From the NCBI GenBank assembly GCA_004431415.1, contig QPMI01000158.1, forward strand, positions 45,807 to 109,806: 64,000 nt of DNA, written 5' to 3'. This document shows positions 2,153 through 38,455 of this stretch, piece by piece. This DNA is from Cyanophora paradoxa CCMP329. Its lineage: Eukaryota > Plantae > Glaucophyta. The notes beneath the pieces were generated by a model, which was not told the DNA's origin, searched no databases, and saw only the letters and a program-made list of their open reading frames with translations. The position numbers and the translations under genes are program-made. The first letter of the stretch is position 1; every line of letters begins with the position of its first letter.

Positions 2153-2774
2153 CGTGCAAATGACAATTAGCAAGCAAATTAAAGCCTTGAAGTACGGTGC
2201 GTGATAGGATTCATGAGATCAGTATCATCTGTGCATCTATAATAGGTATTCATCGAGTTGGGTATACGTATTCAAGTATTCTTCACTAAATATTCGTATA
2301 GAGATTCATCAAGTTATATGTGGCTTAGCGATTACATACATATGCATACTATGATAAATGGCAATCATTGAATGCAAAGCAACTGCACATACAGCTGGCA
2401 AAGTTAATGCATCTAACTTCATCACTCATATGCATTGAATGCAAAGCAACTGCACACGAAACGTTAACTGGCAAAGCTAATTCATCTAACGTAATCACTG
2501 CACATGCAATCAAATACCGTATACGTAGCTATGTATAGTACTGCATGTAGAGACACACATCGATATCGCGATCGATATCGTCTGCACGATCGCGATCGAT
2601 ATTCTGGCAAGCATCGCTAACGTAATAAAAACTGCATGCGTATACAAACATGCATCCGTACGCGTGCAGAGGCTAATTAACACGGTTCGACGAGAAGGTG
2701 GAACGCTCAACATGGACACAGCTGCAGCTGCCAGGCTGCAGCTGCCGCAAAATGGATCAGGACCCTACGTATAC

Positions 2775-2805
<31 letters not shown>

Positions 2806-3689
2806 GGTGCGACAAAATTCGATCGCGGCGGGCCGGGCGCGCGCGCCCTAGGCCTCGCACGAACGGGATAATTTAAGCGAAAGGGAAATTAAAAGTCGAA
2901 AAATCAAAGAGATGGCGCGGGCAATTAAAAAGAAAGGCGCCTGCACATCGCATTCAATGATTGCCATTTATCATAGTATGCATATGTATGTAATCGCTAA
3001 GCCACATATAACTTGATGAATCTCTATACGAATATTTAGTGAAGAATACTTGAATACGTATACCCAACGTGCAAATGACAATTAGCAAGCAAATTAAAGC
3101 CTTGAAGTACGGTGCGTGATAGGATTCATGAGATCAGTATCATCTGTGCATCTATAATAGGTATTCATCGAGTTGGGTATACGTATTCAAGTATTCTTCA
3201 CTAAATATTCGTATAGAGATTCATCAAGTTATATGTGGCTTAGCGATTACATACATATGCATACTATGATAAATGGCAATCATTGAATGCAAAGCAACTG
3301 CACATACAGCTGGCAAAGTTAATGCATCTAACTTCATCACTCATATGCATTGAATGCAAAGCAACTGCACACGAAACGTTAACTGGCAAAGCTAATTCAT
3401 CTAACGTAATCACTGCACATGCAATCAAATACCGTATACGTAGCTATGTATAGTACTGCATGTAGAGACACACATCGATATCGCGATCGATATCGTCTGC
3501 ACGATCGCGATCGATATTCTGGCAAGCATCGCTAACGTAATAAAAACTGCATGCGTATACAAACATGCATCCGTACGCGTGCAGAGGCTAATTAACACGG
3601 TTCGACGAGAAGGTGGAACGCTCAACATGGACACAGCTGCAGCTGCCAGGCTGCAGCTGCCGCAAAATGGATCAGGACCCTACGTATAC

Positions 3690-12714: not shown

Positions 12715-13414
12715 TCAGAAAAACGAGTCGAGGCTGCGGACTGCCTTCGGGCGTGGAATCGGGAGGGGCATCGAGCGGGTGAGAGAGGGCCGGAAGGAGC
12801 CGAGGAGCGGCGCCGGCGAGGCGCGCGCGCGCTCGCTCTCCGGATCCGAGCCCGAGCCGCGGCGGGCGGCGGAGGCGCTCCGCGGCTTGCAGCGGTAGTC
12901 GCGGTCGTACTCCTCTTCGGACTCGGCATCGGAGTCTGAAGACGAGGCGGATCCGCGGCGGCCGCCCAGCCTCGCGGCCAGGGCGAGCAGGGGCGACACG
13001 CTCGCCGTCGGGCGCTCTGACTCCTCCTCGCCGCTCGACTCCTCCTCCTCCAGCTCGATCCAGAAGACCGCTGCGGCGAAATACCAAGTCAGACTGGCAG
13101 CGGAGGGGGGGGGGGGTTGGGGTTGGGGAGGGGGGTTGGGGGTGGGGGTGGAAGGGGGGGGGGGGGGGGGGGGGGGCGAAGGCGGACCCGAGTAGGCGGG
13201 GCAGGAGGCGGGGATGCTGCTCCGGTTGTGGGAGGCGGAGGCGCAGGGCGGGGGCAGGCTCAGGTCCTCCGGGAAGTGGCTGGGGCGGCTGGGCGCCGCC
13301 TCCGCCGACTTGGACTGGCTCGCCCTCCGGTTCGCGATCGACTGCGAGGGCGCCCGCGGCCGCAGCAGCGGGGCCCCGACGGCGGCCGTCGGGTGCGGCC
13401 CGTCGACGGGCGTC
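12715..13414 (-). pseudogene. 3' half of copy 3 of the unknown host gene, interrupted by element 1
   Basis: Homology to 4601-4630 breaks at 13414 and resumes at 41263. Confidence 0.7.
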
Positions 13415-13722
13415 ACACATATACAACTCCCGGCTTTTAGACCTCGGCTTATTTAAATTGATCTTGTTAGTATATAACCTGTATTTATAATATATCTATC
13501 GTGAATATGTGTGTATTTTATCGGTGATTTGTATTTATTTTATCGTGGGTTATAACTTCTTTTTAATAAAATATGTGAAATATGTATAGTTTATGTGAAG
13601 TTTAGCTATATTCTCGATGAGTAGACTTATATATCTCGTGAGTTTTATTATATTAGAGGTGTGACTCAACTTAGTTTAATTATAACTTGCCTCAGTCTAA
13701 AAGCCGGGAGTTGTATATGTGT
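13415..13722. repeat. Terminal fold-back: 28-bp perfect inverted repeat 13415-13442 / 13695-13722
   Basis: ACACATATACAACTCCCGGCTTTTAGAC ... GTCTAAAAGCCGGGAGTTGTATATGTGT; mirrored at the right end. Confidence 0.95.
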
Positions 13723-14103
13723 GTTTGTTCTGAATTTTCAATATAAAAGCGACGATCACGCGCCGTTTCATCATAAACAACTACCATGAGCTGCATGGAA
13801 CGTTCTGCATGCGGCTCTCTATAAAACAAAGTAGATCTATGATATATTATGATTGATTGTTTTGTTTTTTAATTGGTCTTATTCAGTGTTACAGGTGTTA
13901 CAGGTTTATCCCAAAGTCCGCCAAGGAGTGGGGTCTTGGTTCCCGAGTTTGGGCAAGACCTGTAACACCTGTAACAACGTAAACAATTATCATGTGCTGT
14001 ATGAAACATGTCGCGCGCATCGAGAGTGTGCGGCGCACTGTGCGGCGGACTGTGCGCAACGTAAATGTATGAGTTTCGCATCGAGATCGATCGGCTACTC
14101 ATA

Positions 14104-14800
14104 GGAAACTACGCAATCTATCGCAACTACTCAAAGAAACTACGCAATTTAATACCGGGAACTACTGAAAAGATACCAAAACTACGCAACTACGCAACTT
14201 TCTGAAAAAGTCTGAGATTCGGGGCGGGAAAAATTTAGAAAAGTGTAAAACTTGCGTAGTTGCGTAGTTTTGGTTTCGTTTGCGTAGTTTTGGTTTCGAA
14301 TTGCGTAGTTTTTCAGGGTAAGTTGAGTAGTTTCAAGTAGTTTATATATATATTATAAAGTAGTTTCTTATTAATATCAATATGATTCTATGATATATAC
14401 CATGAGTTCACTACTGAAAAGAGCGCCGGCATGCTACAAAGGAAAGCTACGCGATCGTTTCGCACTGCAACACGACCGTTTTATAGGCTACGCAATTGTT
14501 TCGCACCGAAATGCATGCGGGCAATCGGAGACTACGCAAAATAATTAACTACGCATGAAAACTACGCAATCTGATCGCTTTTAATACCGAAAACTACGCA
14601 TTTAATACCAAAACTACGCAACTACGCAACTTTCTGAAAAAGTTTGAGAGTAGGGGTGGAAAAAAATTAGAGAAGTGAAAAACTTGCGTAGTTGCGTAGT
14701 TTTGGTATTAAATGCGTAGTTTGCGGTATTAATTTGCGTAGTTTAACATAGGTAGTTGAGTAGTTTAAAGTAGTTTTTATTAATTATAAAGTAGTTTATT
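14104..14800. repeat. ACTACGCA iteron field with two inverted-arm cassettes (14175-14274, 14607-14706)
   Basis: Arms ACCAAAACTACGCAACTACGCAA / TTGCGTAGTTGCGTAGTTTTGGT around a 54-bp spacer, plus many single copies. Confidence 0.9.
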
Positions 14801-15146
14801 ATTTATCTTATTGTTATCAGTCTGAGACTCTATGAAAATCGATTGACCTTAGTGTGAAACAGTGCGCCCCGCCCACTATGCAAGATACATGCCAACAACA
14901 TGCGAGTTCTATGAAAACAAAAACGATTTAGTCATGTATATATTTCGTATATATGTCTGAACCTCCGTCTAAGATATTCCGCACAACTCTGAATTTGTTT
15001 TGTCTTTTTGTTTTTTTCGCATATGACGACATATACATATATATACCGGCGTCACCGACATATTCGGGGTCATCACATCGCGGCGATTCCGAAAACATAT
15101 AGCATGCCACAAAGTAGTATTTTATGGATTTTTCTCCATTGTAATA

Positions 15147-15430
15147 CTTTGTTCGCGCATTCTGATGCGATTACAAATCGCATTCAGAAGGTATAGCTAA
15201 AATTACTTCGTTCGCGCAATATGATGCGATTACAAATGTATTTCAGATTTTTGAGATTTCCCATTCATAAAGTGTAGGCAACTTTACTTCGTTCGCGCGT
15301 TCTGATGCGATTACAAATGTATTTCAGATTTTTGAAATTTCTTATTCATAAAGTGTAGGCAACTTAACTTCGTTCGCGCGTTCTGATGCGATTACAAATC
15401 GGTTACAAACCGGTTACAAACCGGTTACAA
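15147..15430. repeat. 81-bp-period tandem repeat with core TTCGCGCnnTnTGATGCGATTACAAAT (4 copies), then (CGGTTACAAA/C)x3
   Basis: Cores near 15152, 15211, 15292 and 15373. Confidence 0.85.
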
Positions 15431-15620
15431 TGGCTTCGACCAATCACGACTCCCCACCAAATTACTTAATTGTTTGTTATTATTTTTGACTCGGGGCTCT
15501 AACTTTTAGTCTTACTTTTAGTAAGCCTCTGACTCGGTGAGCCGCTGAGCCAATTCGGCGGTCGGCGGTAGCCTATATACTATGATACTTGCCAGTTGCA
15601 TTTTTTGAGTTGCAAAGTTG

Positions 15621-15746
15621 GAGTCCCGAGTCCCGAGTCCCGAGTCCCGAGTCCCGAGTCCCGAGTCCCGAGTCCCGAGTCCCGAGTCCCGAGTCCCGAG
15701 TCCCGAGTCCCGAGTCCCGAGTCCCGAGTCCCGAGTCCCGAGTCCC
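15621..15746. repeat. Perfect heptamer array (GAGTCCC)18
   Basis: 126 bp of uninterrupted repeat. Confidence 0.97.
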
Positions 15747-16114
15747 GACTCGATAACACAGGCGATCGCGACTTCGCGGAGACCCCCTTCCGTTTTCCCC
15801 GCATAACTTTGGACAGCAAGCCGATCTCGGCGCGCTTTCAATTGCTACGTGCTCACAACTTGCTTCCGGGCATGATGGTGCTAGTTTGACTAGCTTAGTC
15901 GCCGGGCGCGCAAAACCCCAGTTCGACTTCTACACAAGTGCCCGAAAACCGAGGTGTCCCCTACGTCGCGCGCGCCGGCGCGCGTTCCCGTAAGGCTCCA
16001 CTAGTCATACTTTGCATCCGCGTGCGCATAGAGTAGTTCTACACTACTACAAAGTGGCGCGGTCTGATTCGCAAAGCGCGCGATTTGGCGGCTACGAAAG
16101 CACCGCGGCGCCTA

Positions 16115-17548
16115 CTACTTCCGTGGTCTCAGAGTCGCTTTTCGATCGCCATTAGCTACCGGCGCTACCGTTGCTACTTTTCTACTACTTCTTAATGTAG
16201 CTTTGGTTTCCGGCGCTTTATAGCTCTCAGTTTGATTAGAGAACGACTTATACCATCGTTGGCTATTCACGCCGCCGGATAGCTTAGGCTCCGCGGCGGT
16301 TACTAGCCGCTGTAATTCTTTATTTACGCGTTTCTCTTTTTGCACTCGATCTTCTAATAGAGAGCCTTGCGGCACAGTCGCGGCGGCTTCTATGCCCTCT
16401 CTACGCAATTGCGCGTCGACGCGCGCCTCGTCCTTTGCCGCCTCTAATGCATCTACTGTGGGCGCCATTAGGTAATCGACCGCCTGAACCGGTAAAAGCT
16501 CGTGGAAGGCAAAGCGACCCTCTACGCGATTGCCGTCCGGATCAGTTAGCATAAACTTATAGCCCTCGCGCGCGGCGACAGTATATACGATTCGGCTCCA
16601 ATTGTTACCGCCCTTAGCGAATGGCGTCTTCTCGATCCGTAGCCTTACTGACATGCCCGGCTGAATCTGATCCAAATAAGCTATCGATTTCTTGAATTTC
16701 GCATCTTCTTTTTGAACTATGAGCTTATAGTGACTCTCGTTGGTCTCGGCAGGCATATAGCCGGTCGCAGAGTGCACCGTATTATTATAGTTATATTCCA
16801 GAGACGAAAGGACATCTATAAATCGCGCCGTATTATTCGCGATGCAGTAGCTCGTGATCAGCCGCCGCATTTGCTTGTTAAATGCTTCTATGCGCCCTTG
16901 CGCGCGATGGTCGGCTGTGTCCGCTATCTGATGCTCGATAAACTGATTCTCGAAATATTCTCTTAACAGGCTATTAGTGAATTCTGAGCCGCGGTCGCTT
17001 TGAATCTTAAAAATTGGTCTCGGCGCCTTATTTTGCAGCTGTATAAAGGCGGCTAAGGTCGACGCCGCGGACTTATCCCGCATCGGTATAATATAGCCGA
17101 CCCGCAACGTGTTCTCCATCCCAGTTAAAAACGCTTGGTAGCCGTCATTATACTTAGCATACGCCGGAAAGAATAGCAGATCAATTACGTAGGTATCGAG
17201 AGGCTGTCGGATCGGTATAGCCGGGTCTCGTTTGCGGGATAGGTGCGGCGCATTAATCTGAACGACCTCTTGCCGGCTATACCACTCTTGCAATTTCTTA
17301 TAATTCTCGTCCGGCAGCTCTTGCCGTAGCTTAGTGATCCCTTTGAAACCGGTTTGCGGATCGTAGAATTTACGCGCGATTTTCGATTCCTCCGGGACAG
17401 CAAGGGCTACGGGCACGTCGCGGGGCACCAAAGCCTTTAAATCAGACCGCTTTACTATGCGGCTCTCTTTATTCTCTTTCGGCACGGGGATCGGCAATGT
17501 GCTCCCCTCTAAATCTTGCGATCGTCTTACTATTGGCGGTCTTGACAT
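16115..17548 (-). CDS. Retroviral-like (rve) DDE integrase
   Basis: VIDLLFF, IQSDRGSEF, GRIEAFNK, YNNTVHSATG motifs. Start placed at MSRPPIVRR by comparison with element 2. Confidence 0.93.
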   Translation of the reverse strand: MSRPPIVRRSQDLEGSTLPIPVPKENKESRIVKRSDLKALVPRDVPVALAVPEESKIARKFYDPQTGFKGITKLRQELPDENYKKLQEWYSRQEVVQINAPHLSRKRDPAIPIRQPLDTYVIDLLFFPAYAKYNDGYQAFLTGMENTLRVGYIIPMRDKSAASTLAAFIQLQNKAPRPIFKIQSDRGSEFTNSLLREYFENQFIEHQIADTADHRAQGRIEAFNKQMRRLITSYCIANNTARFIDVLSSLEYNYNNTVHSATGYMPAETNESHYKLIVQKEDAKFKKSIAYLDQIQPGMSVRLRIEKTPFAKGGNNWSRIVYTVAAREGYKFMLTDPDGNRVEGRFAFHELLPVQAVDYLMAPTVDALEAAKDEARVDAQLRREGIEAAATVPQGSLLEDRVQKEKRVNKELQRLVTAAEPKLSGGVNSQRWYKSFSNQTESYKAPETKATLRSSRKVATVAPVANGDRKATLRPRK

Positions 17549-17620
17549 CCTTGTCATCAGACAATAAAAAAGATCAATGTAACATTTTACTCGCACCAAA
17601 CAATAGAAGGTATTGTTTAT

Positions 17621-17881
17621 TTACGGTAAATTGGGACAGAATATATTGGCAACGATTCTATTAGGATTACTAACGTCAGTATACCACATTCGGCTAACGC
17701 GACTCCATTTCGCTCCATTGTCTTTTAAGAATTTACGCAAGGTGGTGCGGCGGGTAATTTGCAGTCCATGCTCTTCAAACTTCTTATGATATGTGGACAG
17801 ATTGCGTTTAACATTGAAATAGATAAGCTGTATCGACTGTGGTTCGTGCTCACGCTTTATGGCTTTGATTACATCAGTCAT
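17621..17881 (-). CDS. Hypothetical protein (86 aa), element-1 specific
   Basis: ATG start, co-oriented, tightly packed. Confidence 0.55.
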   Translation of the reverse strand: MTDVIKAIKREHEPQSIQLIYFNVKRNLSTYHKKFEEHGLQITRRTTLRKFLKDNGAKWSRVSRMWYTDVSNPNRIVANIFCPNLP

Positions 17882-17898
17882 CTTATATTGTGTGCATC

Positions 17899-18228
17899 TT
17901 ACGAGACGCCAGAAATCCAGAACAGGTTGATATCCTCCTCGTCTTCATCATTTACTTTCTTGATGGTATACTTATAGGATATCTCATCGTTGGATGCTCT
18001 TACATACGCAAACACATTATTTATTGATCGAATGACTATCTTGTGCGGTTCTTCAATAAAGAAACCAATAGATTGAATATCGGCTCTACGAAAGAGTGTA
18101 TTTACAAAGGTAAATGGCATGCGATCAGTATCAAATGAAAAGAGGATATCAAATAGTTCCACGGTGCTAAATGATAGATCCGAAAGAGGATAAACGAAAA
18201 TAGGTTGTCCTTTGAACAGATACGCCAT
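17899..18228 (-). CDS. Hypothetical protein (109 aa), element-1 specific
   Basis: ATG start; preceded by the shared promoter-like block at 18244-18268. Confidence 0.65.
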   Translation of the reverse strand: MAYLFKGQPIFVYPLSDLSFSTVELFDILFSFDTDRMPFTFVNTLFRRADIQSIGFFIEEPHKIVIRSINNVFAYVRASNDEISYKYTIKKVNDEDEEDINLFWISGVS

Positions 18229-18243
18229 ATTCGCCGTCGCCTT

Positions 18244-18335
18244 TTACTTTAAGCTGAGAAAATATTTTCCTGTTGCCTAAATGTAGCGCGTTCTCCTTAA
18301 ATCATTTTGCGTTGCCCACGGGGCTTTCAATTTTT
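18244..18335 (-). promoter_or_regulatory. Putative early promoter AAAAATTGA...AAAATGATTTAAG...AAAATATTTTCTCAGCTTAAAGTAA
   Basis: 25-nt exact match to 25733-25757; both lie just upstream of an ATG. Confidence 0.6.
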
Positions 18336-18480
18336 GACGATCCGCGGTGAGACTCTCTCACGTTTACTGTCAATAAAATCAGGCTACCTGAGCGTTTATT
18401 GTCGAGATTTTAATAATTAATGAAAATCCTGACAATAAACACCGCAAAACGCGCAATAAAAACGTGCAGTAAACAGTAAA

Positions 18481-18645
18481 ATGGACGCCCCGATATGGGA
18501 CGCGCACCCGATCCCCAATTACTTCCTAATCGACCCTGACGACCCCGGATTAAAGTGCATATGGCTTTTACATATCCTAAGGCGACAGCTCCTTCAATTA
18601 GAGCGCAAACCAAGAAAAAGAACGCATGATAAGATAGACGACTAA
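18481..18645 (+). CDS. Small ORF not in the supplied track (54 aa, MDAPIWDAHPIPNY...HDKIDD)
   Basis: A-rich leader (CAGTAAAATG); stop overlaps the PolB stop codon. Confidence 0.4.
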   Translation: MDAPIWDAHPIPNYFLIDPDDPGLKCIWLLHILRRQLLQLERKPRKRTHDKIDD

Positions 18646-21600
18646 CAGCCGAATGGAAGGCTATGTATGCCGTCGCCTGATATGCAGCGCTTGCCATCGA
18701 ATTGGGTCAGCGCTATCCGCTTGCTCTCCAAATCATATAAGTGGTGGCATCGCCGTTGCTTGTTTACTACTGTTACTGTTTTTGTGATCCCGTCAAATAG
18801 GCAGCGCTTAAAGTCGTCGAAATGCACCTCTTTCGAGGCTGTCCCGCTCATTTTTACCTTGTCGTAGCTCTCGGTGCGGAAAGCATATAGCTTCGGTCGC
18901 AGTCCCACATACTCCACTATCTTGACGTCCGGCATCTCATTTTTATATTTACCGGGAACCATCCGGTTCTCGGGACTATAAGGGCAATCTAAATAAGGGC
19001 TGATCGCTCGCATGCCCGCTTCCAGATCCGCGCTCTCTATATACAGACAGAACGAGTCGGTATCGTGGAACAGCAGCTGAGCTTGCGACCAGGTGGGACG
19101 GATCACGTCGTAAAAGAAGCTATAATTATGCAGCTTCGCGGCATCCAGCACATAAGCGCCAATAGCAACCGGTTTATCGAGTTTTACGTGTTTACTATAC
19201 ATTTCGAATGCAACAGCGCTTTCGTTTAATACATTCGTCGCTTTTACCAGTGGGCTCGCCGCATATTTCTTAAACAGCTTCGTGCTGTTCGCGATCTTTA
19301 CCACGGAGCGCCCGCGACACGATTCCAGGCATTTACCGTAAATAGCATTATTCATCAATTTAAAAAAGTCGCTCTCGAATTTATTCCGGGCTTCCTTTCG
19401 CAGTTTCGTGTTCAGATCTATATAGGGCTTCATAAATGCGGCGGTTGCAAACGAGAGCACCCGGTGGATCTTAGTAACTACGATCCCCTTTTTTACCATA
19501 TAGAGCAGCATCGGCTGAGAGACCACGTAATTATATTTCGGGGTAAACGAGGCGATCAGCTTCGGATCTTTACTGAGCTTCTCGCCGCTTATCTCTAATA
19601 GCCCACGCTGATATGCGCCCAGCATGTCCGCAGTAATTACCTCTTTACTCACGATCAGCGGGAAATCGCGATGGTCGCCCTTTAAATAGTCCGGATACGC
19701 AAGGTCGACCTCTATAAATGCACTCCGCCCTACGACCTCGGTAAAAGCTGTGCTTGTGTCGTCCCAGCGATAGTCCCCGACCGGTAAAGGCTGACTGAGC
19801 GCATAGCCATATAGGTTATTCGCATCCAATAGCACTATATGTTTATTCTCGCTATTAGCCTCGGCATATCGTGTGGGCATGGTCGCAAAGCCGCCCCTAA
19901 TTGCCCGCTCAATAAATTCGTATTGATCCGCATCGCTGATCTGTTCTATCGCGACCCTCGTATGCTTTAACATCGCGTCCCACGATAGTCCCGGTGCGCT
20001 CACATAATGCGTCGGATCCAGACCGTATTGCTCATGGGCGAGCATGCTGAATTTACCGAATTTTACCATGAGATCATTAACATCGGACGCCTGAAAATCC
20101 ATGAAATTCGAGGCGTCTATAAACTTGTAAAGTCCCCACTGTAAAGAGAGATACTCATCGAAATTCTTACTTAGGATCTCGACCCGCAGCTTGTCGTCTT
20201 GCTGTGCGATTTTCCTGAATATAGCATGCCCGCACTCGTCCATCCGATCAATGACCACGGCTACTTTCGTTTGCTTTGAGATCCTCCTATGTAAATTGCA
20301 TTTTCGGCAAGCTTTCCCTATATAATCGCCGCTTTGGTGACAGTGATCGCGCACAGGGAAGTTTTCGTGGGTAAACCGCTGATTGCATATATAGCAGTGT
20401 TTGGTCAGCTTATAGGCTTGCTTTTGCGCCTCTGTGAGCGGGATCATAGGTGTGTTGGTAAATAGGGTATTAAGCATCTCGCGACACAGATCCCCTAACG
20501 TGGTAAACATCTGTCCCAGCGGATCCACGCCCTCGAATTCGTGATTTTCAACATGAGAGCCCATAACAACATTAAGTGCCACCGACTTTACCTCTCGCTT
20601 GGTTCGATTTGGTTCATTAGGAACCGGCACCGACTCCATCTCTACTTTGCAGTAGCAGACAGTGGGCAGCCACACCATTTTCCTTAGGTGTTGCAGTCCG
20701 AAAGTAATAAAGCTTCCGGGTTCCGGGCATTTACCTTTACTCAGCCGCCAATCGATACAGCGATTAGAGTCGGTGTGGCTATCGAGTTTCTCCTGTGATC
20801 TAAACCGGGACAAACAGGTTTCGCAATAGAAAATGCGCCCATCGTTTGCTTTATCAAAGGTGGTCTTTAAGAGGCGGCTCAGTGACATTATCGTAATATA
20901 GTGACCCTGTCCGTTTGCGTCCTCGATCAGCAGCAGGTTTACCTTCGATTTACGACGCGGATTACTTGACATGTGCAGTGGGTAAAAGGTTTGGGTCGCA
21001 TTGTCGGCGCCATATATATTAATTGACAGCTCGGGATTATTGTCCTCGAAACGATCTATTAATGCAGCATCGCAAGCCACCGGGAAATTAATGCCTGAGA
21101 AGTCGAGTTCAGTCATCCACCGCCTATATTGGAACGGATCATTACGTTTGTGTCTGTTTATGTCGTTTCTGTGCAGCCATGCGAGGATAGCGTAATTAAA
21201 ACAGTCGTGACCATCGATATTCTTAATATTTACTGTGGCTCGCTTTAATCCAATCCATTCCGGGGTCTCAATGTAGCACCCGCCCATCGGCGCATATGAC
21301 AAAACGGCGACATGTAGCTTATCTAATTTACTGAGCCGGTAGCTGTCGACCTGTATCATCTGTTCATTCATTTGCTGAGCTACACCCACTAACTCAGTGA
21401 GAATATTGCGCGACCTTGTGATTACGAAATAATCGCTGTAAATGTGTTTGGTGATAAAAACGTTAGGATCACTCACTTTTACGTATCGACAGATGAAAGT
21501 AAGGCGCACCTTAATAGCTTTGAGCTCGTCCAGCCGTTCTTTCAGCCGTCCAGGCAGATTTGCAGCGATTGTAGTGAGAAATTCCACCGGATCTAAGATT

Positions 21601-21905
21601 ATCTGTTCATCCGCCTTATAGCTATACCAGGCGTATGCTTTATTCATTGCGAAACCGTCGTCCTCATCGGGTTCTATGACGGCTAAGCGCCGCCCTTCGG
21701 TATAGAAGCGCTCCACATTTTCCAGGCGATTGTAAAGCTCGTCGGCAATATTCGCAAGGTTAGCTAAGCGGGGTTTTCGATCTAAGATCGCCGCCCTCCG
21801 ATCGTATTCGGCTTCGGTGATCTCCCCAGTGACTAAAAGACTACCTAACAAGCCTAATATTTCGTCTTTTTTCTCTTTTATAAGGCGGTTGGTTTGGCGG
21901 GGCAT
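18642..21905 (-). CDS. Protein-primed family B DNA polymerase with N-terminal vOTU-like region and EndoVII/HNH-like Zn insertion; exonuclease motifs degenerate
   Basis: LDANNLYG, KLMNNAIYGK, HDTDS, YGLDPTHYVSAPGLSWDAMLK; DCFNYAI...GHY; DHCHQSG...ACRKCNL. Confidence 0.95.
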   Translation of the reverse strand: MPRQTNRLIKEKKDEILGLLGSLLVTGEITEAEYDRRAAILDRKPRLANLANIADELYNRLENVERFYTEGRRLAVIEPDEDDGFAMNKAYAWYSYKADEQIILDPVEFLTTIAANLPGRLKERLDELKAIKVRLTFICRYVKVSDPNVFITKHIYSDYFVITRSRNILTELVGVAQQMNEQMIQVDSYRLSKLDKLHVAVLSYAPMGGCYIETPEWIGLKRATVNIKNIDGHDCFNYAILAWLHRNDINRHKRNDPFQYRRWMTELDFSGINFPVACDAALIDRFEDNNPELSINIYGADNATQTFYPLHMSSNPRRKSKVNLLLIEDANGQGHYITIMSLSRLLKTTFDKANDGRIFYCETCLSRFRSQEKLDSHTDSNRCIDWRLSKGKCPEPGSFITFGLQHLRKMVWLPTVCYCKVEMESVPVPNEPNRTKREVKSVALNVVMGSHVENHEFEGVDPLGQMFTTLGDLCREMLNTLFTNTPMIPLTEAQKQAYKLTKHCYICNQRFTHENFPVRDHCHQSGDYIGKACRKCNLHRRISKQTKVAVVIDRMDECGHAIFRKIAQQDDKLRVEILSKNFDEYLSLQWGLYKFIDASNFMDFQASDVNDLMVKFGKFSMLAHEQYGLDPTHYVSAPGLSWDAMLKHTRVAIEQISDADQYEFIERAIRGGFATMPTRYAEANSENKHIVLLDANNLYGYALSQPLPVGDYRWDDTSTAFTEVVGRSAFIEVDLAYPDYLKGDHRDFPLIVSKEVITADMLGAYQRGLLEISGEKLSKDPKLIASFTPKYNYVVSQPMLLYMVKKGIVVTKIHRVLSFATAAFMKPYIDLNTKLRKEARNKFESDFFKLMNNAIYGKCLESCRGRSVVKIANSTKLFKKYAASPLVKATNVLNESAVAFEMYSKHVKLDKPVAIGAYVLDAAKLHNYSFFYDVIRPTWSQAQLLFHDTDSFCLYIESADLEAGMRAISPYLDCPYSPENRMVPGKYKNEMPDVKIVEYVGLRPKLYAFRTESYDKVKMSGTASKEVHFDDFKRCLFDGITKTVTVVNKQRRCHHLYDLESKRIALTQFDGKRCISGDGIHSLPFGC

Positions 21906-21927
21906 CTTTTACTCTAAGGGAACATTT

Positions 21928-22206
21928 TTATTTCTCATTTTCGGCGCGATTCGCGAGTTTCTGTTGGAGCCTTTGGCGCGTATAACGCGCGCTATGCGAC
22001 GCCTGTGCATTTCTACGTGCATTATCGGAACCCAGAATACACTCTCCTATTCTCTTTTCAGTCAGTTGCATTATTTTCCTGTCGAATTTCCGCTCACTCA
22101 CCTCCCTTTCGAAATTCCGCCCGTGCTTTTGGAATCTTAGGCTCATCTTCTCCCAAACCAAACTCTTAACAACATCGTTAAGGCTAATTTGCATATCGTT
22201 CTCCAT
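21928..22206 (-). CDS. Hypothetical basic protein (92 aa)
   Basis: ATG start; upstream AAAATTTGA...AAAAATTATTTTC motif. Confidence 0.55.
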   Translation of the reverse strand: MENDMQISLNDVVKSLVWEKMSLRFQKHGRNFEREVSERKFDRKIMQLTEKRIGECILGSDNARRNAQASHSARYTRQRLQQKLANRAENEK

Positions 22207-22258
22207 TTGATTCAGTGTTGTGTTATGTCTGAAAATAATTTTTCCCGATGATCAAATT

Positions 22259-22555
22259 TTACGGACTTTGTATGGTGCGCCCCGACAATTTTTTCCCGGT
22301 GAGCTTACTGACGCTCCGGACTGTGAGCTTTACGTTTTCGGGTAGCTCTATGCTTAGTTGTATATCGCCCGATTTGATAACATGGGTGCGGGTTCTTTTA
22401 CCACGGCAATTCGGGTAGTAACCGAATATTCGCCTGAAAAGATCCTGTGTGGCTTCAATATCCATGGTCGCGGTTTGAGTGATCTCGTCCGCAGTCAGGG
22501 CGTGCGTATAGGTCGGTCTGATAGCGGTCATTGTGTTGTCAGTATATACAATCAA
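22259..22555 (-). CDS. Hypothetical protein (~90-98 aa)
   Basis: Co-oriented ORF filling the gap; start uncertain. Confidence 0.45.
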   Translation of the reverse strand: MIVYTDNTMTAIRPTYTHALTADEITQTATMDIEATQDLFRRIFGYYPNCRGKRTRTHVIKSGDIQLSIELPENVKLTVRSVSKLTGKKLSGRTIQSP

Positions 22556-22619
22556 AGGTAGGCTTATATACCTTAATCATATTTTGAGAATGGCACGATA
22601 TACAGTATACAAAATAATA

Positions 22620-22870
22620 AACTACTTAATTAATATAATAAACTACATGAAACTACTTGACTTTCCTTGCAAAACTACGCAACTTGAAACCAAAACTACG
22701 CACTTAATACCAAAACTACGCAACTACGCAACTTTTGCGCTTTTCAAAATTTTTCCCGCCCCGAGTTTCAAATTGTTTCTGAAAGTTGCGTAGTTGCGTA
22801 GTTTTGGTATTAAATGCGTAGTTGCCGGTATTAAATTGCGTAGCTTCGCTATGTAGTTGCGTAGTTACTA
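22620..22870. other. Internal ACTACGCA iteron cassette, putative replication origin (core 22709-22808)
   Basis: Same 23-bp arms and 54-bp spacer as the TIR cassettes; ~100 bp downstream of the helicase stop. Confidence 0.7.
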
Positions 22871-22905: not shown

Positions 22906-25319
22906 TTACGCTTCAATATCATCCTCATCTTCGTCTTCAAACTGTGTCTTGGCGATCTTAGTGAGCCCCTTATAAACTCGCTTCGACTTCCCTTTAATTG
23001 TAGTCACAGTCGATTCAATCTTGAATGTTTCGAGCACTTTGTTACTGATAGTGCGAGTGGTAACCTTTGTCTTGATATCGTAGCTTCGCATCATTTCCGC
23101 GCAAGCTTTGAATACCTCATCACAGGCAACATGGGCGCCCTTTTCCTCTGACAGCTTGTAATTTTCGCGCAGATAGGAACCCAGCTTATCGCTGTCGTCG
23201 AGATATTTGGCGCTATGCTCGATGACAGATTGCGGCGGGTTTTGCAGGATCTCTTTAACTTTGCCAGTAGCGAGCATATCGATGAGAATCTGAATATTTG
23301 CCCGCTTGTATTCATTTTTCTCGTCGCCCTCAAACATTTCCATGAGGGTTTCGTCCGCTTTCTTCTCTCCGGCTTTGGGATTAGGTGAGTAAACAGAGCG
23401 GAATGGGATCGATCGGAACCGACGCTTAATAGCTTTGTCGGGCTTTTCGATTTCCAGATTATTGTTGCACAGGATCACCATAGTAAACCGAGGCTTGAAA
23501 TCAATAGGATCCTTGAAAAGTCCTCGGCTGTGCAGAGCTCGCCACCTGTCAGTGTCTTCATCATACCGCATAGAAGCTTGTCGCCATCATTAGGTTCGTT
23601 TGCATGGGTGAGCCGGACACCTTGCTTATTAGCAAGCTCGGGAATCGGGCTATTTGCTTTGTGGACTTGTGTGAGCAAAGTAATGCTAATCGGGCGAGCA
23701 TAATCACCGAATGTCTCTTGCATAAACGTTTCAATCACACTCTTTCCATTAGCACCGACACCTGTGAATAGATAGAACGTTTGCAGGTCGGTTTTACCTG
23801 TGAGTGCATATGCATAGAGGCTGATCAGGTAGTTGTAGAGTTCCATATCTCCGCCACAGATATCCAAATAAATGTCTTTCAGCCTTTTAACCTTTGCCTC
23901 ATCAACTTCCTCGCAGTAATCAAAGCCGACAGTCTTGCTCACCATATCTTCCGTCGTCCCCTTGCGGAAAGTCATATTATTTAGATCAAACACGCCATTG
24001 GTAAACCCCACAATATTGGGAACTGTGTCCAGAGTCGCCATAAAGTCATCGTCTTGCAGCTGTGTGATAATATGCGGTTCCAGCGACTTTTGATACGGTG
24101 TATTCTGAATCCTCTTGTGAATTGCCAGCAACATGTTGGCGCTCTTCTCAGCTTTTTCCTTCACAAGATCATCTCCACTTGCCCTGAGAGCATTGGAAAG
24201 ATGATAGCCCGCCCTCTTAGAGAACCACTGTGCCACATGCTCGGGGATCTTAGAAAGTAACGACTTCTCCGTTTTATCATATTTCCAGATACCATTTTTG
24301 GGGTTAAGGTTAAACCAGACCTTATTTGAATATTTCGTGGTCGCTTTCAGGATCTTGGCGCAGATAATTGCAACAGGATAATGGGCACCTTCAACTGAAA
24401 CGGTCTTGTCAATGAGAGTATTAATTTCTAAATGGTGCTTCTCTTCCTCAGTCAGCTCTATGTTAACAGAGAACTCTTTCGGCTCGCAGTTCTCGCTGTA
24501 ACTCTTCACAATATACTCATTATACTTGCCATCTCGCTTTTTCTTCACCCACCAGTTATTGGAATCGTGGGATTCATCGCAGCAGGGACACAGGAACCCC
24601 TTGTTAGCCGCATTAAAGTCAAAGCCCTCATCGCGGCGTGCATAGATATTTGGGAATAGGAACCCCATCCCACACAGCCCGGCAATAATAGCAGCTTCGG
24701 TATTATCCTTGCTCGAATTTCCCGCTTTCGGCTGTGGATTATTGGCATGCTTGTAATCGTAGTTCTCAATAATCCATTTACGGAAAGCGTCAGAGGGCTC
24801 ATTAAACTTGCACGACGATGCCCACGGCTTAATTACCCAGGTCTTATTAGGGCTCGGGCATACATTGAGAAGTCCCGCAGTGCCAGTGCCAGTGATGGTT
24901 TTGAGGTCGACCTTCTTGTATCCCTTAAAAGCCGGCGCGCTATCTGTGATTTTCAGCTTATCAAACTCATCAGGGCGTCGAAAGAATACATGGTAGCCCT
25001 TTCGAGTCTTTTCGAGCGGCTGATGGGCATCGAAATCACCGGGAAACATCTCAACGAATTTCTGATAGGTTTCCTCATCGTCGAAATCAACGACCATCAT
25101 CGAATTCGACAGCAGAATGCCCCAATTAGTGAACTCGTTGGAAGCAAAGGCTTCGTCGTATCTTCCCCAGTTCCAAACACCGCCTTTATGGGTGTAGGCG
25201 GGCTTTTTAACCTCGTCTTTCATGGGAATAATCGTGTTTTTCGACAAGGTCTCATCGCCACGCAGCCAATCAGCGAGCTCTTGGAGTAAAGTCTTTTGTT
25301 TCAACGTCATCTTCGCCAT
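22906..25319 (-). CDS. Prim-Pol (bifunctional primase/polymerase N-terminal) - Zn-finger - D5-like SF3 helicase fusion; one frameshift near 23525
   Basis: MVVDFDD, TRKGYHVFF, CPCC..H, GFTNGVFDL, Walker A GVGANGKS, ANEP. Restoring one C gives LTGGELCTARGLFKDPIDFKP. Confidence 0.88.
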
Positions 25320-25501: not shown

Positions 25502-25723
25502 TCAATACTTGCGGGGTCGCCCGCGGTTTCCACTGTGAATGCCCTCTTCTTGCTTGCGACGGTAGTAATATTCCAGCGCCTTTTTCTTTTTTAATTCGCG
25601 ATATTCGGGATCGTCGTTATAGCGCATCCGCTGTTTATATATGTCCCTGACACGCCAGCCCGCCTTATCGAGATCTACCGGGTTCCCGTTTTTATCATAC
25701 ACAGTCATAGCATGCGTCTCCAT
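25502..25723 (-). CDS. Small basic protein with C-terminal AT-hook (RGRPRKY)
   Basis: Homologous to two element-2 ORFs (YRE..K.KAL.YY...GRPxKY). Confidence 0.75.
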   Translation of the reverse strand: METHAMTVYDKNGNPVDLDKAGWRVRDIYKQRMRYNDDPEYRELKKKKALEYYYRRKQEEGIHSGNRGRPRKY

Positions 25724-27183: not shown

Positions 27184-28095
27184 TCAAAATTTACCCAATT
27201 TCTTTGCAAATTTTGGGCGGCGCTTTTCTTGGTATGCCAGCAATAGATTGGGGTCTTTAAGTAGGTCGGCTTCGATTATTCTTTTGGTGGATCGCTTTAA
27301 GGTGGCGACGTTTCCACTCACAGGTTTCGTTATATCGGTGGTTTGGGGTTGGTCGCCATTTACCTCTGTGGAGCTCTGTTTTACCGGCTGTTTACCAGCG
27401 GTCTTTATGTCGTCCGCCGCTTTTTTAAAGAAGCGCTTGAATTTATATTCGTCGGGCACCGGATCAGCCTTGCCAACAGAGAATTCCAGGCTATATTTCG
27501 CATTGTTTACCACGATCACCTGATAGCTGTGACTGTATTCGGTCATCACCTTCTCGAACCACCGCTTTTCGTATGGATTAAACTCGTCCTCGGCGCTCTC
27601 CATCTCCTTTCTATTCGGCAATGAGAACAGGAATATATATTCGGCGTTTACTCTAAGTGTGGGCGAAATCTTCGTGAGTTTCTGTGACAAAATCCAGACG
27701 CTCACAAACAGATGGCGTCCAGCAGTGAAAAGACGATTTAATATAGGCTCACCCTTTCCTGACATCGATAGACTCGGATTATCAATAAAATCGTCCAGCA
27801 CAATTAACAGGTTACCGACTTTCTCATTTTTCTTGATCCTCTCCTTGCGTTTCTCTATTATATTGTCGATCAGCTTATGGTCGAAATCCTCATACAGATA
27901 CGATGTGACATTGTCGTATTGATGATTCCAGATCGTGGAGGCGAAAATCATCACCGAATCTATCTTGTCCTCGTTGTGGTAAAGCAGGTATTTCAAAAAC
28001 ACTGACTTCCCAGTTGCAGTTTTGCCCACAAAAACGGCGCGATTCGGGAAATCCAGGCTTCCCGGGTCAAACTCACTCAGATCTTGTATATCCAT
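27184..28095 (-). CDS. A32-like FtsK/HerA genome-packaging ATPase
   Basis: GKTATGKS, LIVLDD, GRH...SQ...LRVNAEY. Confidence 0.93.
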   Translation of the reverse strand: MDIQDLSEFDPGSLDFPNRAVFVGKTATGKSVFLKYLLYHNEDKIDSVMIFASTIWNHQYDNVTSYLYEDFDHKLIDNIIEKRKERIKKNEKVGNLLIVLDDFIDNPSLSMSGKGEPILNRLFTAGRHLFVSVWILSQKLTKISPTLRVNAEYIFLFSLPNRKEMESAEDEFNPYEKRWFEKVMTEYSHSYQVIVVNNAKYSLEFSVGKADPVPDEYKFKRFFKKAADDIKTAGKQPVKQSSTEVNGDQPQTTDITKPVSGNVATLKRSTKRIIEADLLKDPNLLLAYQEKRRPKFAKKLGKF

Positions 28096-28146
28096 TTCCC
28101 TTATAAGAAACATATAAAAATTACAAAACGCAACAGCCTTTATTAC

Positions 28147-29595
28147 TCATGCGCTTATCTTCGATAATCCATTGGCATTCATCACAAGAATATTGTGGCA
28201 GTAAGCCGAGATCTGAACACCGACCTTTGTCCAGGTGGCGAGGGGTGTGCCATTGGGTGTGAGCAGCAGGAAGCTCGACGCGGATTGTGTTAGATCGACG
28301 TAGCCAGTCGCCTTCTCACCTTTGAGCGCCGCTTTACCATCGAGGGCAAAGCAGAAGCCAGTGTAAATGGGGCGCTTGTTGCTATCGATCCAGTTGGTCA
28401 TCTTGAATTTATCGGCGAGCTCCATAGCCGCAGATTGCAGCGGGACACCAGTGTTAGAATATAAGTAATTGTTGTTGTTTAGGACTTGCATAACGACATT
28501 ATCATCGTAGGCAAGGGTGCGGACAGTAGAGTGCCCTCCGAAATTGTTGCCGAGTGCATTTTCGTCGCGAACCTTGACAACAAGTGCGTAAACAAGTCCC
28601 GAAATTTGAGATAGTGACAGCCGGAGACCGGAGCCGAGAGCTTGACCGGTATAATCCGCAAACTGAATATCAGTGTAGGGGATGGCGATGCCAGAGGTCT
28701 TAACACGAGTAATGATTTCGCCCATCGTTTCCTCATCGATGTTAACAGCATCCATAATAAGACGAGGGGTCGTCATTTCCAGATTCGCAATTGCAGGTGT
28801 AGATGTGAGAGCCGCATTGTCGAAAATGGCAGTGGCGTTAGGGTGAGCTAAGGTCTTAATATTTCCGAAAGCAGCCGCAACAGCAAGCGTCGTCTCGCCA
28901 TCGGTCGAATTGGCAGCAGTAATTGCAGCCGTGTTATTCTGAGCGTAAACGCCAGGAACCGCCGCAGTTTCGAGAAGCGCAGGGGTTTGGAAATATACTT
29001 CGACCGCGATTTCGGATGGGAGCGCACCGATGGGCACGCCAGCATCGAGGAAGCTTGGAATTCGCATGGTAAAAATGCCGCCAGCTTGGTTGCCGCCCTC
29101 TACCTTCGGTCCGAGATGTAGCCCATGCTTGCGCTTCTTTTGCTCGAATTCAGCCGGAGAGTTAACCAGGAAAGCGTAATCTACCAGTCGCTCAGCGGGA
29201 ATAATTTGCTCATACGACCCGTATTTAATGCTGACTCGCTGAACGAACGATCCAGGAAGCCCGCGGACGAATCCAGTGTTGAATAGATCAGCCGAGCAGT
29301 CAGCAGAGGTCTTGGCGATGGCAGTCAGCGCCTTCGCCGATGGGATGGTAACTTGGAGGCTAATACCATTGCACCAATTGTAGCGAGGGAGATAGAAGAC
29401 AACACGAGTGGTAGCACCAGTAGAGGAGAACAGATTGCCGGGATCCGCAATTGGGAGCACCTCCACACGAGAAGGCTTGAATTGTTTGTCCACACCCACG
29501 ATAAATCCGCGATCCAAAAGCATGCTCTTGTAATCCTCCGGGGTTTCGAGGACGGATTTGAGCGTGAGGCGGCTAAGCGAGGTCGTGGGATCCAT
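28147..29595 (-). CDS. Putative double-jelly-roll major capsid protein (482 aa)
   Basis: Size, beta-rich pattern, VFYLPRY and VPIGAL..EIAVEVYF motifs, position beside ATPase and pentons, conserved in element 2. Confidence 0.75.
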   Translation of the reverse strand: MDPTTSLSRLTLKSVLETPEDYKSMLLDRGFIVGVDKQFKPSRVEVLPIADPGNLFSSTGATTRVVFYLPRYNWCNGISLQVTIPSAKALTAIAKTSADCSADLFNTGFVRGLPGSFVQRVSIKYGSYEQIIPAERLVDYAFLVNSPAEFEQKKRKHGLHLGPKVEGGNQAGGIFTMRIPSFLDAGVPIGALPSEIAVEVYFQTPALLETAAVPGVYAQNNTAAITAANSTDGETTLAVAAAFGNIKTLAHPNATAIFDNAALTSTPAIANLEMTTPRLIMDAVNIDEETMGEIITRVKTSGIAIPYTDIQFADYTGQALGSGLRLSLSQISGLVYALVVKVRDENALGNNFGGHSTVRTLAYDDNVVMQVLNNNNYLYSNTGVPLQSAAMELADKFKMTNWIDSNKRPIYTGFCFALDGKAALKGEKATGYVDLTQSASSFLLLTPNGTPLATWTKVGVQISAYCHNILVMNANGLSKISA

Positions 29596-31935: not shown

Positions 31936-34900
31936 ATGAGTATCACGAATCTCCCCTTTATCACTCGGGAAACCTTGTATTTGGATGACGGTTTCGAGCT
32001 TTCCAGTAACATTACAGCCTCTAATGTGACCATATCCTCGAACCTTGTGGTAAAAGACTTTCTATTAAACCAGAGCAACCTTGAATATATCGATATCACC
32101 AGCAATCTCCCTTTTACCTATGGCACTGATAACTCAGCCCTCGTAATATATCATGGGGGCGCACCTGTTGCATTCTTTGGCAGCAATTTCCCCACTGTGC
32201 GAACCTTCCAGCACGAAATCAATAAAGCCCGCCCCATCCCACTGACAGCTGTCGTCGAATGGGATCCTGTTAAATATTCGCAGAGCATCACAAGCAATAT
32301 CACCCTCACTCGACCGCATTTAATTGATGTCATGGGGGTCGACCTTGTAAAGGAGTTTTATAGCGAGCGATTCACAAGAAACGAGCGAGATGTAGCCCAG
32401 GATCTCGAAATTTCGGGTTTATCAATTGCTACCGCAGCAAACACGGCAGGACTCGCCGTTCTAACAGGAGCTATCACCATCACTGATGCGATCATGTATT
32501 TATCCCGCGATTTGGTGCCTTTGCTCAATCATCAGTTTAATCTCGGGCAGTCTAACACTGATGCTGTTAAGAAATGGCTCAATGTGTATGCCTATGATGG
32601 GTGGTTTGATGACTTGCACACGACCAACCTATATAGCACGACCTCAAAAACAAGTAACATAATCTTGCCTTTCAATCACTCAGTCCGACCCAGTGATTTA
32701 CCCACTGATGAGAGAGCTCTGATCAGCTACAACGACTTTAACAGCAATCTTTCCCGCTCAGTTTCGCGAACTGAGACCTACACTGTCGAGGGATACCCTC
32801 AGCAGCTCGCAAACGGGGTCTATGTCGCTTATGTAGGCAAACCTACATATACATTCACTTGGGATCAGTTGGGTGTCACAGGTTTCGAGACGAATATACC
32901 CACTGTTTCATTGGTGGATCGCACTACTTATTATAATCCTATCTATAACAATAATGAATATAATAAAGCATTTATCCAAAATGTCACCTCCACAGGGTTT
33001 CAGGTTTCGTTTGTCATAAACGAGACATACAATTTACTTATCATCCGAAACAACTCATTGAGTTCCGAAGCTACTATTAGTTTCACTCTTAACATCAATT
33101 ATATCACCCCTGAATTCGATAGCAAACCCAGAGTAAAGGTTTACCGAGATTTACAAGGTAGCAATATCGTTCCCTTCTCACAGAATTTCGATCTTGGGGC
33201 GAATTCTTTAAGGTGGAACACAGTTTATTCTTTGAGTGCAAACACCTGTAATATTGTGGTCGCAGGGTCATCGGCTACTATTGGAGATCTGACCGCCCCT
33301 TTTAGAAAGGAGTATCTCAGAGAACTGTATATAACAAAGTCTGATTTACCAGATGCTATTTCGTTGGTGCTCTCCCCCACTCCCAGTATATCCTACCACA
33401 ATGTGAGAGACACAAGTAATGTAGTGCAGAGGGGAAGCAAAGTATTCCAGGCATCCGAGATATCAGCATCAACATATAGATACCTTGCAGAGGTTCCAGC
33501 GAATTTTAATTTCACATTTGAGACACCATTTGTTTCCCCTCCTACTATTGAAATAACTGACACGAATTTGTATGTGGTCAATAATGGGTCGACCACCTCT
33601 ATTAACAATGCACCAGCCGGCTACTCCCCATTTGTTGCAACTAACATAACAACCACCGGCTTTACACTTGTCGGAAATGCAACAGTGACATATGCTCTGA
33701 CAGCATATCCTGTTGGGTTGTATTTTGCGAAATTTAATCTTTCAGCGATCCCACCTGTGTCCCTTTCTCCTCCCTTTACTATAAGTTGGAAGGCAACAGG
33801 AACTATTCCGCGATTCGACCCCGAAGACCGCTTGAAAATTAGGTATCCTCTCGATGTGACCGACCTTCATACTACGAGAATCAATGGGCAGAATTTCGTA
33901 TTTAATGGAACCAATGCAACTCTGATCGATAATCGAGTAACGAATAATTACTTTTTCGATTCTCGATATATTAATACTTGCAATATTGTCATACAGAACA
34001 CGTTTGAGAATCGAAGTAAGACCTTATCAGTCACCTTGCCCACTCACTCGAATGTCTCAGATGGATTTCACTATTATCTTTTCAATCGCAATTACACCTC
34101 ATATATTCCATACCCTTCTGAGACTGTCAACATGAGCTATCCCAGAGTCACCCTTACATCGACCAATGCTGACTTCTTTGGATCCACGGACTTTATGACC
34201 TTCTTTGCTTTCACATCCTCTACTGATGGGCTCTTAGTTTATTACACTTTCAAATCTGATACTGTTGCTACCCAGATTGAAAGCCACCCAAACACTGATA
34301 TTATCACAGTAGGCGATAAGAAATATATAAAAACCGCTTCCCCATGGGTTTGCACTGTCCGGCTCGATGACAGATACACTCCTAACCTAAATAACATTGG
34401 AATGCACTCGACATGCAATATTTATGTGCAAGGTGCAATTTCGGCTACCAAATATTTCGAGGGTGGAAACTGTGATGCAGAGCATAGGTTGCTATCGCGA
34501 AATGGGCTCTTTGAGTCATTCAGTGGGACAGCTCTACCGCCCTTTATCAGGGACACAGTCTATGATACTACGTGCAATATTTGGGTGTGCCGATCTGTGA
34601 GCAATCCACCTGTGACAAAGGAATTATATAAATACCTGTCAGATACCTATGGTGCAATCACAGGGTCTTCAACAGGAAATCCAGCAACGGCTCCCATCGT
34701 GTTTGCGAATGCATACACAGCGCCGACATCATTAGCAGGGTCGACAGAACCGCCACCAAACGATCCCAATCCAAACACACCTAAGCCAGATCCCGATTCG
34801 AAAAATCCCCCTACAACTAATCCAGATCCAAACACGACACCTAATAATCCCTCAAATCCTACAAACCAGCCCGTGGGTCGTGGTGTCGATCCAGGACTGA

Positions 34901-35262: not shown

Positions 35263-35291
35263 TTTTTGTAGAATGCCTTAATAGAGAAATA

Positions 35292-38435: not shown

Positions 38436-38455
38436 TAATAAAGAACAATCAAAAG

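Follow-up and report, generated by a model that had tools for sequence, protein, structure and literature searches.

Mirror-word cassettes beside the primase-helicase genes of two integrated polinton-like viruses: putative replication origins of the SaPI/P4 type

How replication starts in polinton-like viruses (PLVs) or in virophages is an open question, above all where a primase-helicase replaces or accompanies a protein-primed polymerase. The question is raised anew by a stretch of 64,000 nucleotides from Cyanophora paradoxa CCMP329 (contig QPMI01000158.1, positions 45,807 to 109,806; hereafter the window, with positions counted from its first letter), in which two integrated PLVs, elements 1 and 2, carry cassettes of short tandem words (7-9 bp) that face their own reversed copies across a spacer, both behind the gene of a superfamily 3 (SF3) primase-helicase and near the element ends. 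These cassettes are quite probably replication origins of the type used by Staphylococcus aureus pathogenicity islands (SaPIs) and phage P4, to which the tail of the element's own SF3 primase-helicase would bind, load as a hexamer and prime. The layout, the conservation of the arms and the co-variation of word and helicase are the observed part of this reading; tail binding and loading are inferred from the SaPI protein PriRep. The features on which the argument turns are the following (TIR, terminal inverted repeat):

13415 to 41262, no strand: element 1, a complete integrated PLV of 27.8 kb, delimited by its ends, target-site duplication, Pfam matches and a drop in GC content
13415 to 14917, plus strand: left TIR of element 1, roughly 1.5 kb long, matching the right TIR at 99.2% identity
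39758 to 41262, minus strand: right TIR of element 1
43567 to 64000, no strand: element 2, a second PLV, left end only, running past the window end
22906 to 25319, minus strand: primase-helicase of element 1 (Prim-Pol, D5_N, SF3, tail), stop at 22906, two frames in the window
50424 to 53016, minus strand: primase-helicase of element 2 (PriCT-2, DUF5906/NrS-1-type SF3, predicted winged-helix-like tail), stop at 50424, two frames
14175 to 14274, plus strand: element 1 cassette, left-TIR copy 1, with more ACTACGC copies from 14108 to 14309
14607 to 14706, plus strand: element 1 cassette, left-TIR copy 2, arms reaching 39 bp, words from 14531 to 14742
22709 to 22808, minus strand: element 1 cassette, internal copy, ending 98 bp past the helicase stop, opposite in orientation to the left-TIR copies
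39953 to 40084, minus strand: element 1 cassette, right-TIR mirror of copy 2
40402 to 40501, minus strand: element 1 cassette, right-TIR mirror of copy 1
44167 to 44276, plus strand: element 2 cassette (GTTGAC words), left-end copy 1
44555 to 44668, plus strand: element 2 cassette (GTTGAC words), left-end copy 2
about 50232 to 50337, minus strand: element 2 cassette, internal copy, about 87 bp past the helicase stop, opposite in orientation to the left-end copies

The element 1 cassette consists of perfect 23-bp arms (ACCAAAACTACGCAACTACGCAA and its reverse complement) around a 54-bp spacer and occurs in three distinct copies, at 14175, 14607 and 22709, with mirrors in the right TIR. This is as stated in the original prediction, which a model had made from the letters of the window, and the distance of the internal copy from the helicase stop, given there as about 100 bp, was measured as 98 bp. 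All 44 ACTACGC matches in the window fall inside the five element 1 clusters; shuffles gave 3.9 +/- 1.9 matches, with a maximum of 9. Over 225-315 bp the three distinct copies are 77-84% alike. Compared pair by pair, their arms never differ (46 of 46 positions for every pair, 138/138 in total), whereas the spacers match at 46, 44 and 40 of 54 positions (130/162). Arms that stay invariant while the spacers between them drift, among old duplicates, argue that selection maintains the words not only in the internal copy but also in those of the TIRs. For element 2, the predicted layout with a different word was found in three cassettes (starting at 44167, 44555 and about 50232), but their inner spacers measure 61, 60 and 56 bp, so that a fixed spacer length holds for element 1 only. 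Asymmetric spacer and flank sequences agree that the internal copy is inverted relative to the left-end copies in both elements, as had been claimed; relative to the copies at the right end of element 1, this makes its internal copy a direct repeat. Each cassette presents at least two iterons per side, pointing in opposite directions.

The position of the cassette directly after a rep-like gene (98 and 87 bp in the two elements) recurs in relatives. A scan of IMG/VR with element-2-type helicases yielded 61 loci (687 kb), comprising PLVs and true virophages with A32 ATPase and Sputnik-type capsid (gene families, with Pfam run on representatives). The strict detector ignores gene position and asks for two tandem 7-mers, a gap of 30-130 bp and two reversed copies, with one mismatch overall; it found a match no more than 400 bp past the helicase stop in 28 of the 61 loci and ten matches elsewhere in the 687 kb. 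Where the searched stretch is complete, 27 of 55 helicase ends are matched versus six of 407 other gene ends; among non-redundant cases, counted at gene 3' ends, the figures are 17 of 40 for helicases versus four of 340 for other genes (Fisher p 3e-15). Helicase starts had no cassette inside the same 400-bp distance (0/37). Two further scans with D5-type helicases (80 and 78 overlapping loci, mostly from apparent giant viruses; gene maps for 14) gave matches past the stop in one PLV contig, L065, and one hairpin, L048, only; apart from these, the D5 loci of the scans lacked the cassette, unlike the window elements. L065, the single clear PLV of the first D5-type scan, has a cassette of its own 16 bp past the stop. 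The L048 match was rejected as support, being a perfect hairpin in a truncated giant-virus D5 gene.

The same positions invite another explanation, namely that the cassette is a transcription signal, either an RNA hairpin ending the helicase transcript, in the manner of the mimivirus hairpin rule for transcript ends, or an operator used by the helicase, or by a small basic protein encoded nearby, to regulate expression. Every copy in the window is positioned past gene 3' ends, the internal copy folds as RNA better than shuffles do (z -12, which is expected of any inverted repeat), and a small basic open reading frame (ORF) lies ahead of both helicases. Such a role is decidedly unlikely, given that among the 3' ends of these viruses' other genes only four of 340 carry a cassette and that the copies in element 1's left TIR are 1.4-1.8 kb past the integrase stop. 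Moreover, the arms conserve sequence and show no paired changes, and in several relatives (L133, L257) they are unequal; the following gene is oriented away in 11 of 18 loci and towards in six; and no Rfam family matches. A scan for bacterial promoters and terminators found nothing.

If the cassettes are origins read by the adjacent helicase, their words should change with it. On a tree of 47 non-redundant helicase cores, a quick tree with long-branch warnings that serves for display only, the words cluster by clade (TGTATAG; TGGAGGG/TGTAGGG; ACGGAAG/ACGGACA; GGGGACT). For 32 of the 47 helicases a word was chosen by eye, the remaining 15 being omitted as absent, truncated, doubtful or upstream, and word similarity follows helicase-core identity with rho 0.34 (p 0.0005). 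Where an ATPase is present (14 loci), rho is 0.74 for the helicase versus 0.02 for the ATPase; where a recombinase-family gene is present (13 loci), it is 0.33 for the helicase versus -0.04 for the recombinase. A repeat with the detector only, on 19 loci, gave rho 0.21 for the core and 0.29 for the tail; here, at least six of seven word letters are common to 14 of 25 pairs whose helicases are at least 65% identical, versus one of 146 pairs below that identity. A natural swap is seen in L118 and L120, which have the same word and helicases 96% identical but ATPases at 27%; conversely, L121 and L169 have ATPases 50% and helicases 23% identical, and their words differ. The GIY-YIG gene was tried as a word reader and rejected (rho 0.24; 0.19, p 0.09, given the helicase); by Pfam, none was recognised in the window elements.

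Within the window, where alone the word could be compared with the family B polymerase (PolB), it tracks neither of the two genes that the original prediction had named as rivals of the helicase: the integrases are 65% and the PolBs 60% identical, yet the words share nothing and the helicases differ. This bears on the reading that the words are bound by some other factor; PolB or its terminal protein, integrase and packaging ATPase would be candidates, as would a protein from the host or from a giant virus. Such factors act on TIRs, and that is where the copies are located; the PolB start adjoins the internal ones. On the evidence as a whole we consider this very unlikely: besides the contrast between the two elements, 30 PolB loci without a detected helicase gave four stray matches in 365 kb (their ends possibly missing), the word does not track the ATPase in the relatives, and in the cassette-bearing IMG/VR loci PolB was not recognised in any of the recurrent gene families.

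Copies of the cassette also lie away from the helicase gene. As in both window elements, inverted echo copies occur near the contig ends of L135 (87%), L169 (93%) and, more weakly, L134 (77%), and at 5833-9814 of L257, inside a PLV, a GIY-YIG-like gene and a helicase are enclosed by inverted repeats of 290 bp (91% identical) that each hold a cassette. The existence of such distant copies speaks against mere linkage. The repeat-bounded block of L257 is, from its sequence, a candidate transposon-like replicase module, and L135 and L169 are similar; this favours the view that a mobile replicase module ends in these cassettes, which would serve its movement or recombination, with word and helicase co-varying by linkage only. 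The left-end and internal copies also form an inverted pair around integrase and PolB in both window elements, and repeats around replicases have been taken as signs of mobility (10.64898/2026.10.13.758929, PMC11296320). As the whole explanation this is quite unlikely. Most loci hold a single cassette (an echo survey flagged seven of 73 loci, three of them clear, two weaker and two probably unrelated or low-complexity, with the reservation that the contigs are in their majority fragments), recombinase and word do not go together, and tandem words in mirror symmetry with invariant arms would be left unexplained. It is compatible with an origin function, and the two may coexist.

The origin reading draws further on the helicases themselves. 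By Pfam, they belong to distinct SF3 subfamilies; they are not non-homologous, as had been thought, but distant SF3 homologs (27% identity over 150 residues, E 7e-6). Both elements have the SF3 helicase with fused or upstream primase that characterises SaPI/P4-type systems (where an MCM-like helicase may take its place), and homologs of 775-1,615 amino acids combine primase and helicase in a single chain. The closest folds or families are the NrS-1 primase-polymerase-helicase (PDB 6k9c) and giant-virus D5/C962R. A structure predicted for the element 2 helicase from 43 sequences (predicted local distance difference test score, pLDDT, 85.5) superposes with residues 1-404 on residues 363-753 of SaPI5 PriRep (Z 20.3, root-mean-square deviation 4.5, 351 residues aligned) and on NrS-1 with Z 26.4. 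Its C-terminal helix-strand order is typical of winged helices, and the alignment extends to PriRep5 residue 753; a C-terminal winged-helix domain is accordingly predicted, for element 2 only. The tail of the element 1 helicase aligns, at the sequence level, with D5 tails. Small basic proteins with GRPRKY-like endings, 39% identical, are encoded ahead of both helicases (25502-25723, 53235-53561 and 53714-54103), and similar small basic ORFs flank the helicases of L136, L255 and L261.

By analogy with SaPI PriRep, initiation could proceed in the following manner: The C-terminal winged-helix tail of the helicase would bind the words, and each arm would be loaded with one hexamer. The duplex between or beside the hexamers would then open, and the primase domain would prime. 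The TIR copies may be selected-for duplicates that let the helicase load close to either end of the genome, whether linear or integrated, and the helicase gene with its adjoining origin may travel as one module among viruses of differing capsids and integrases. The extreme termini, which begin with ACACATAT in both elements, would be left to the shared integrase and PolB; termini of this kind match the integrase and PolB that the elements share, while the inner words match the helicases in which they differ.

Several observations weigh against cassettes as helicase-read origins. (i) The position is far from universal: 23 of 40 non-redundant helicases lack a strict match past the stop; no cassette is visible in L137, L141, L152, L173, L114 and L171, nor in the virophage-like D5 locus L177; in the L136 group, L125 and L255 it lies upstream instead; and in the subfamily of element 1 just one further PLV with a cassette was found. 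(ii) The co-variation has limits. The detector-only subsets are small (eight loci with ATPase, p 0.04 for the helicase; five with recombinase, p 0.15); near-identical helicases may differ in word (L151 versus L150), six letters being common in four of seven pairs above 90% identity; and the tail is not clearly better than the ATPase core as word predictor (partial rho 0.09, p 0.07, versus 0.24). The contrast within the window is weak by itself, because the two TIRs have diverged almost everywhere, and since word and helicase gene are adjacent, linkage alone could produce co-variation, which does not prove recognition. (iii) Prediction of the word from the closest reference helicase was tried on 16 held-out metagenome loci: the preset criterion was reached in none (0/16), and the predicted word was among the top three in three (chance expectation 2.8). 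The refutation test named in the original prediction was passed in part, the word following the helicase, and not the packaging ATPase or tyrosine recombinase, among the relatives; exact prediction was not confirmed. With nearest references only 29-48% identical, below the range in which words are kept, and five downstream regions incomplete, the failure limits the rule more than it refutes it; judged by eye and post hoc, one of the related words TGTATAG, TGTAGGG and TGGAGGG is the most abundant in eight of the 11 held-out loci whose closest reference is L127 or L133. (iv) Both helicase genes are broken in this assembly; the frame break of element 1 is missing in the contigs of all four public runs compared. 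(v) The AT content of the element 1 spacer, which contains a G-run, is 61-67%, the same as that of its TIR and no higher; the element 2 spacers have 66-77% AT, and AT-richness is visible in many relatives.

Single-protein scans of IMG/VR with either window helicase returned no relative, and a metagenome scan for the helicase subfamily of element 1 found none. A search for the element 1 word pattern elsewhere gave three chance matches in unrelated phage genes.

The words described so far are not the only ones arranged in this way. A cassette of a third word in the element 1 TIR and two more cassettes in the left end of element 2 had been missed in the original prediction; among them are the following:

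13887 to 13976, no strand: orphan cassette in the left TIR of element 1, two plus two TGTTACAGG copies facing each other across 52 bp
40700 to 40790, no strand: orphan TGTTACAGG cassette, right-TIR mirror
44962 to 45060, no strand: further mirror cassette in the left end of element 2, TGAACAGTTAA words containing GTGGAC

The TGTTACAGG cassette has no internal copy in either element. A search with its pattern matched 87 stretches (41 viral, 46 bacterial or archaeal), many of them coding repeats; the 30 matches with a long ORF ending alongside include 11 primase-helicases (AAA_25, D5, DUF927, VapE), three integrases and one plasmid Rep, so that the motif does occur after primase-helicase genes in bacteria and phages. 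The orphan cassette is a candidate relic or foreign origin, and its sequence would fit the origin of another helicase left behind in the TIR. Cassettes away from the helicase stop also occur in L159 (8422-8549), L141 (7405-7498) and L261 (4484-4592); the distant word of L159 is unlike its helicase-adjacent word, which resembles the situation of the orphan in the window. A 14-bp match with an element-2-like word (13662-13675 versus 43984-43997) is the sole match within the two TIRs (E 0.054) and is possibly a relic or chance.

From these pieces a wider scheme can be composed, which is speculative and, taken as a whole, rather doubtful. PLVs and virophages would swap a portable helicase-origin module; a newcomer would write its origin into the TIRs, where orphans such as the TGTTACAGG cassette remain; origins at the ends would let an rve-type provirus open its ends and be copied out without an excision enzyme, a proofreading-less PolB elongating; and different words would define separate replication groups. 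Pertinent to the last enzyme, both PolB genes (18642-21905 and 46928-50173) lack a block of about 120 residues present in aligned relatives, together with conserved exonuclease residues; what we take to be the polymerase motifs are kept and the presumed exonuclease motifs lost. Both are therefore probably proofreading-less polymerases, judging from the alignment.

Among known systems, the SaPI origin comes closest: it immediately follows rep and contains two or more oppositely oriented iterons per side, and the tail of the Rep protein binds it (PMC9371898, 10.64898/2026.10.17.759575). The SaPI modules (Rep1, or PriRep5, with ori) likewise combine an SF3 primase-helicase bearing a C-terminal tail with opposed short words after the gene, and the SaPI word is specific to its Rep, with the co-variation among the relatives as a possible counterpart. 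In contrast to SaPIs, the cassettes belong here to a linear, TIR-bounded eukaryotic virus with an rve integrase and its own PolB, and extra cassettes lie in both TIRs; the spacers measure 54-61 bp and are moderately AT-rich in element 1, versus 102 bp in SaPI5. In pRN1, an inverted structure just 3' of the primase-helicase gene is essential (PMC4234260), and ORF904 of pRN1 and the phage BIP-1 system (with P4 alpha as summarised in the same source) share the Prim-Pol or archaeo-eukaryotic primase domain, SF3 helicase and winged helix; they differ in having what is described as a 100-nt stem-loop without iterons, a circular plasmid or phage genome and no terminal copies.

For PLVs, the inverted repeats had been proposed as origins read by the primase-helicase, within a replicon-replacement model, by Barth et al. 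2024 (PMC11296320), where Gezel-14T is described with a repeat of more than 300 bp common to its TIR and the region after the end module. The original prediction, according to which nothing of the kind had been described for Polintons, was in this respect too strong; that paper describes no iterons (the term has 0 occurrences in its main text) and, in the parts examined, gives no word, spacer or co-variation test. The elements treated there use tyrosine recombinases, in contrast to the rve integrase and PolB of both window elements. Terminal palindromes of Halocafeteria virophages and PLVs are likewise TIR features tied to particular replication genes (10.64898/2026.07.28.741278); these are perfect, 52 nt long and at the very end, and were searched with gaps of at most 10 bases, whereas the cassettes lie 0.5-1.3 kb inside and have spacers of 54-61 bp. 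Replicase swapping and repeats bracketing replicases have also been reported in preprints from 2026 (10.64898/2026.10.13.758929, 10.64898/2026.06.19.733378). The examined passages of PMC12220804 and 10.1101/2022.07.28.501842 contain no such cassette, and a literature search, with most subscription journals and supplements outside its reach, returned no description of iteron origins in PLVs or virophages. Likely, then, a bacterial origin type that was already known is new in its occurrence in eukaryotic viruses, with the terminal copies as an addition. The cassettes supply base-level candidate origins and a search rule (mirror words past the helicase stop), natural word-helicase pairs on which binding can be tested, and a concrete mechanism behind the reported turnover of replicases; they suggest a mechanistic tie between eukaryotic viruses and bacterial phage satellites, and the copies in the TIRs are relevant to how integrated elements exit.

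The assignment of both elements to the PLVs rests on their gene content and, for element 1, on its ends. GC-rich flanks surround the two low-GC elements, and the gene order common to both is integrase, PolB, primase-helicase, A32-like ATPase and probable capsid genes:

16115 to 17557, minus strand: rve-type integrase of element 1, a weak Pfam match below the curated cut-off
18642 to 21905, minus strand: Maverick-type family B polymerase of element 1, by Pfam
27184 to 29595, minus strand: A32-like packaging ATPase (by Pfam) and probable major capsid protein of element 1
45539 to 50173, minus strand: rve integrase and family B polymerase of element 2, by Pfam and alignment

By Pfam, the polinton-type set of rve integrase, protein-primed-type PolB and A32-like ATPase is present. 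Beside the integrases (65%) and PolBs (60%), the ATPases of the two elements are 38% and the probable capsid proteins 33% identical. The major capsid protein of element 1 is probable from its position, its size and this identity to the element 2 counterpart; the proteins of both elements gave no Pfam match for a double jelly-roll capsid. In the protein set searched, PolB had no close relative, the best being 33-39% identical. A 6-bp duplication of the target site, GGCGTC, flanks element 1; element 2 runs past the window edge on its right, and TIRs and duplication were judged on element 1 only. With rve integrase, PolB, A32 ATPase, TIRs and 6-bp duplication, the elements are not SaPIs or phage-inducible chromosomal islands proper, that is, bacterial phage satellites with a tyrosine integrase.

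Further features were noted along the way. The ends can fold back, with 51-bp arms around 208 bp in element 1 (13414-13723) and a 28-bp hairpin in element 2 (43567-43639), and a tandem array of the 7-mer GAGTCCC lies between left TIR and integrase of element 1 (15593-15750). In two of four public runs, a variant skips 365 bp between PolB and cassette (21933-22299), and loose ends in the public runs point to further PolB and helicase variants within the same organism. Long, repeat-rich fibre-like genes of element 1 (31936-39463) have C1q and weak H-lectin matches in Pfam; at 59233-60787 of element 2, Pfam identifies an F5/8 type C protein together with a patatin-like phospholipase. On the host side, a 915-bp direct repeat with internal 119-bp inverted arms (2153-3561) and related lower-GC islands at 7.5 and 12.2 kb probably represent a small transposon family.

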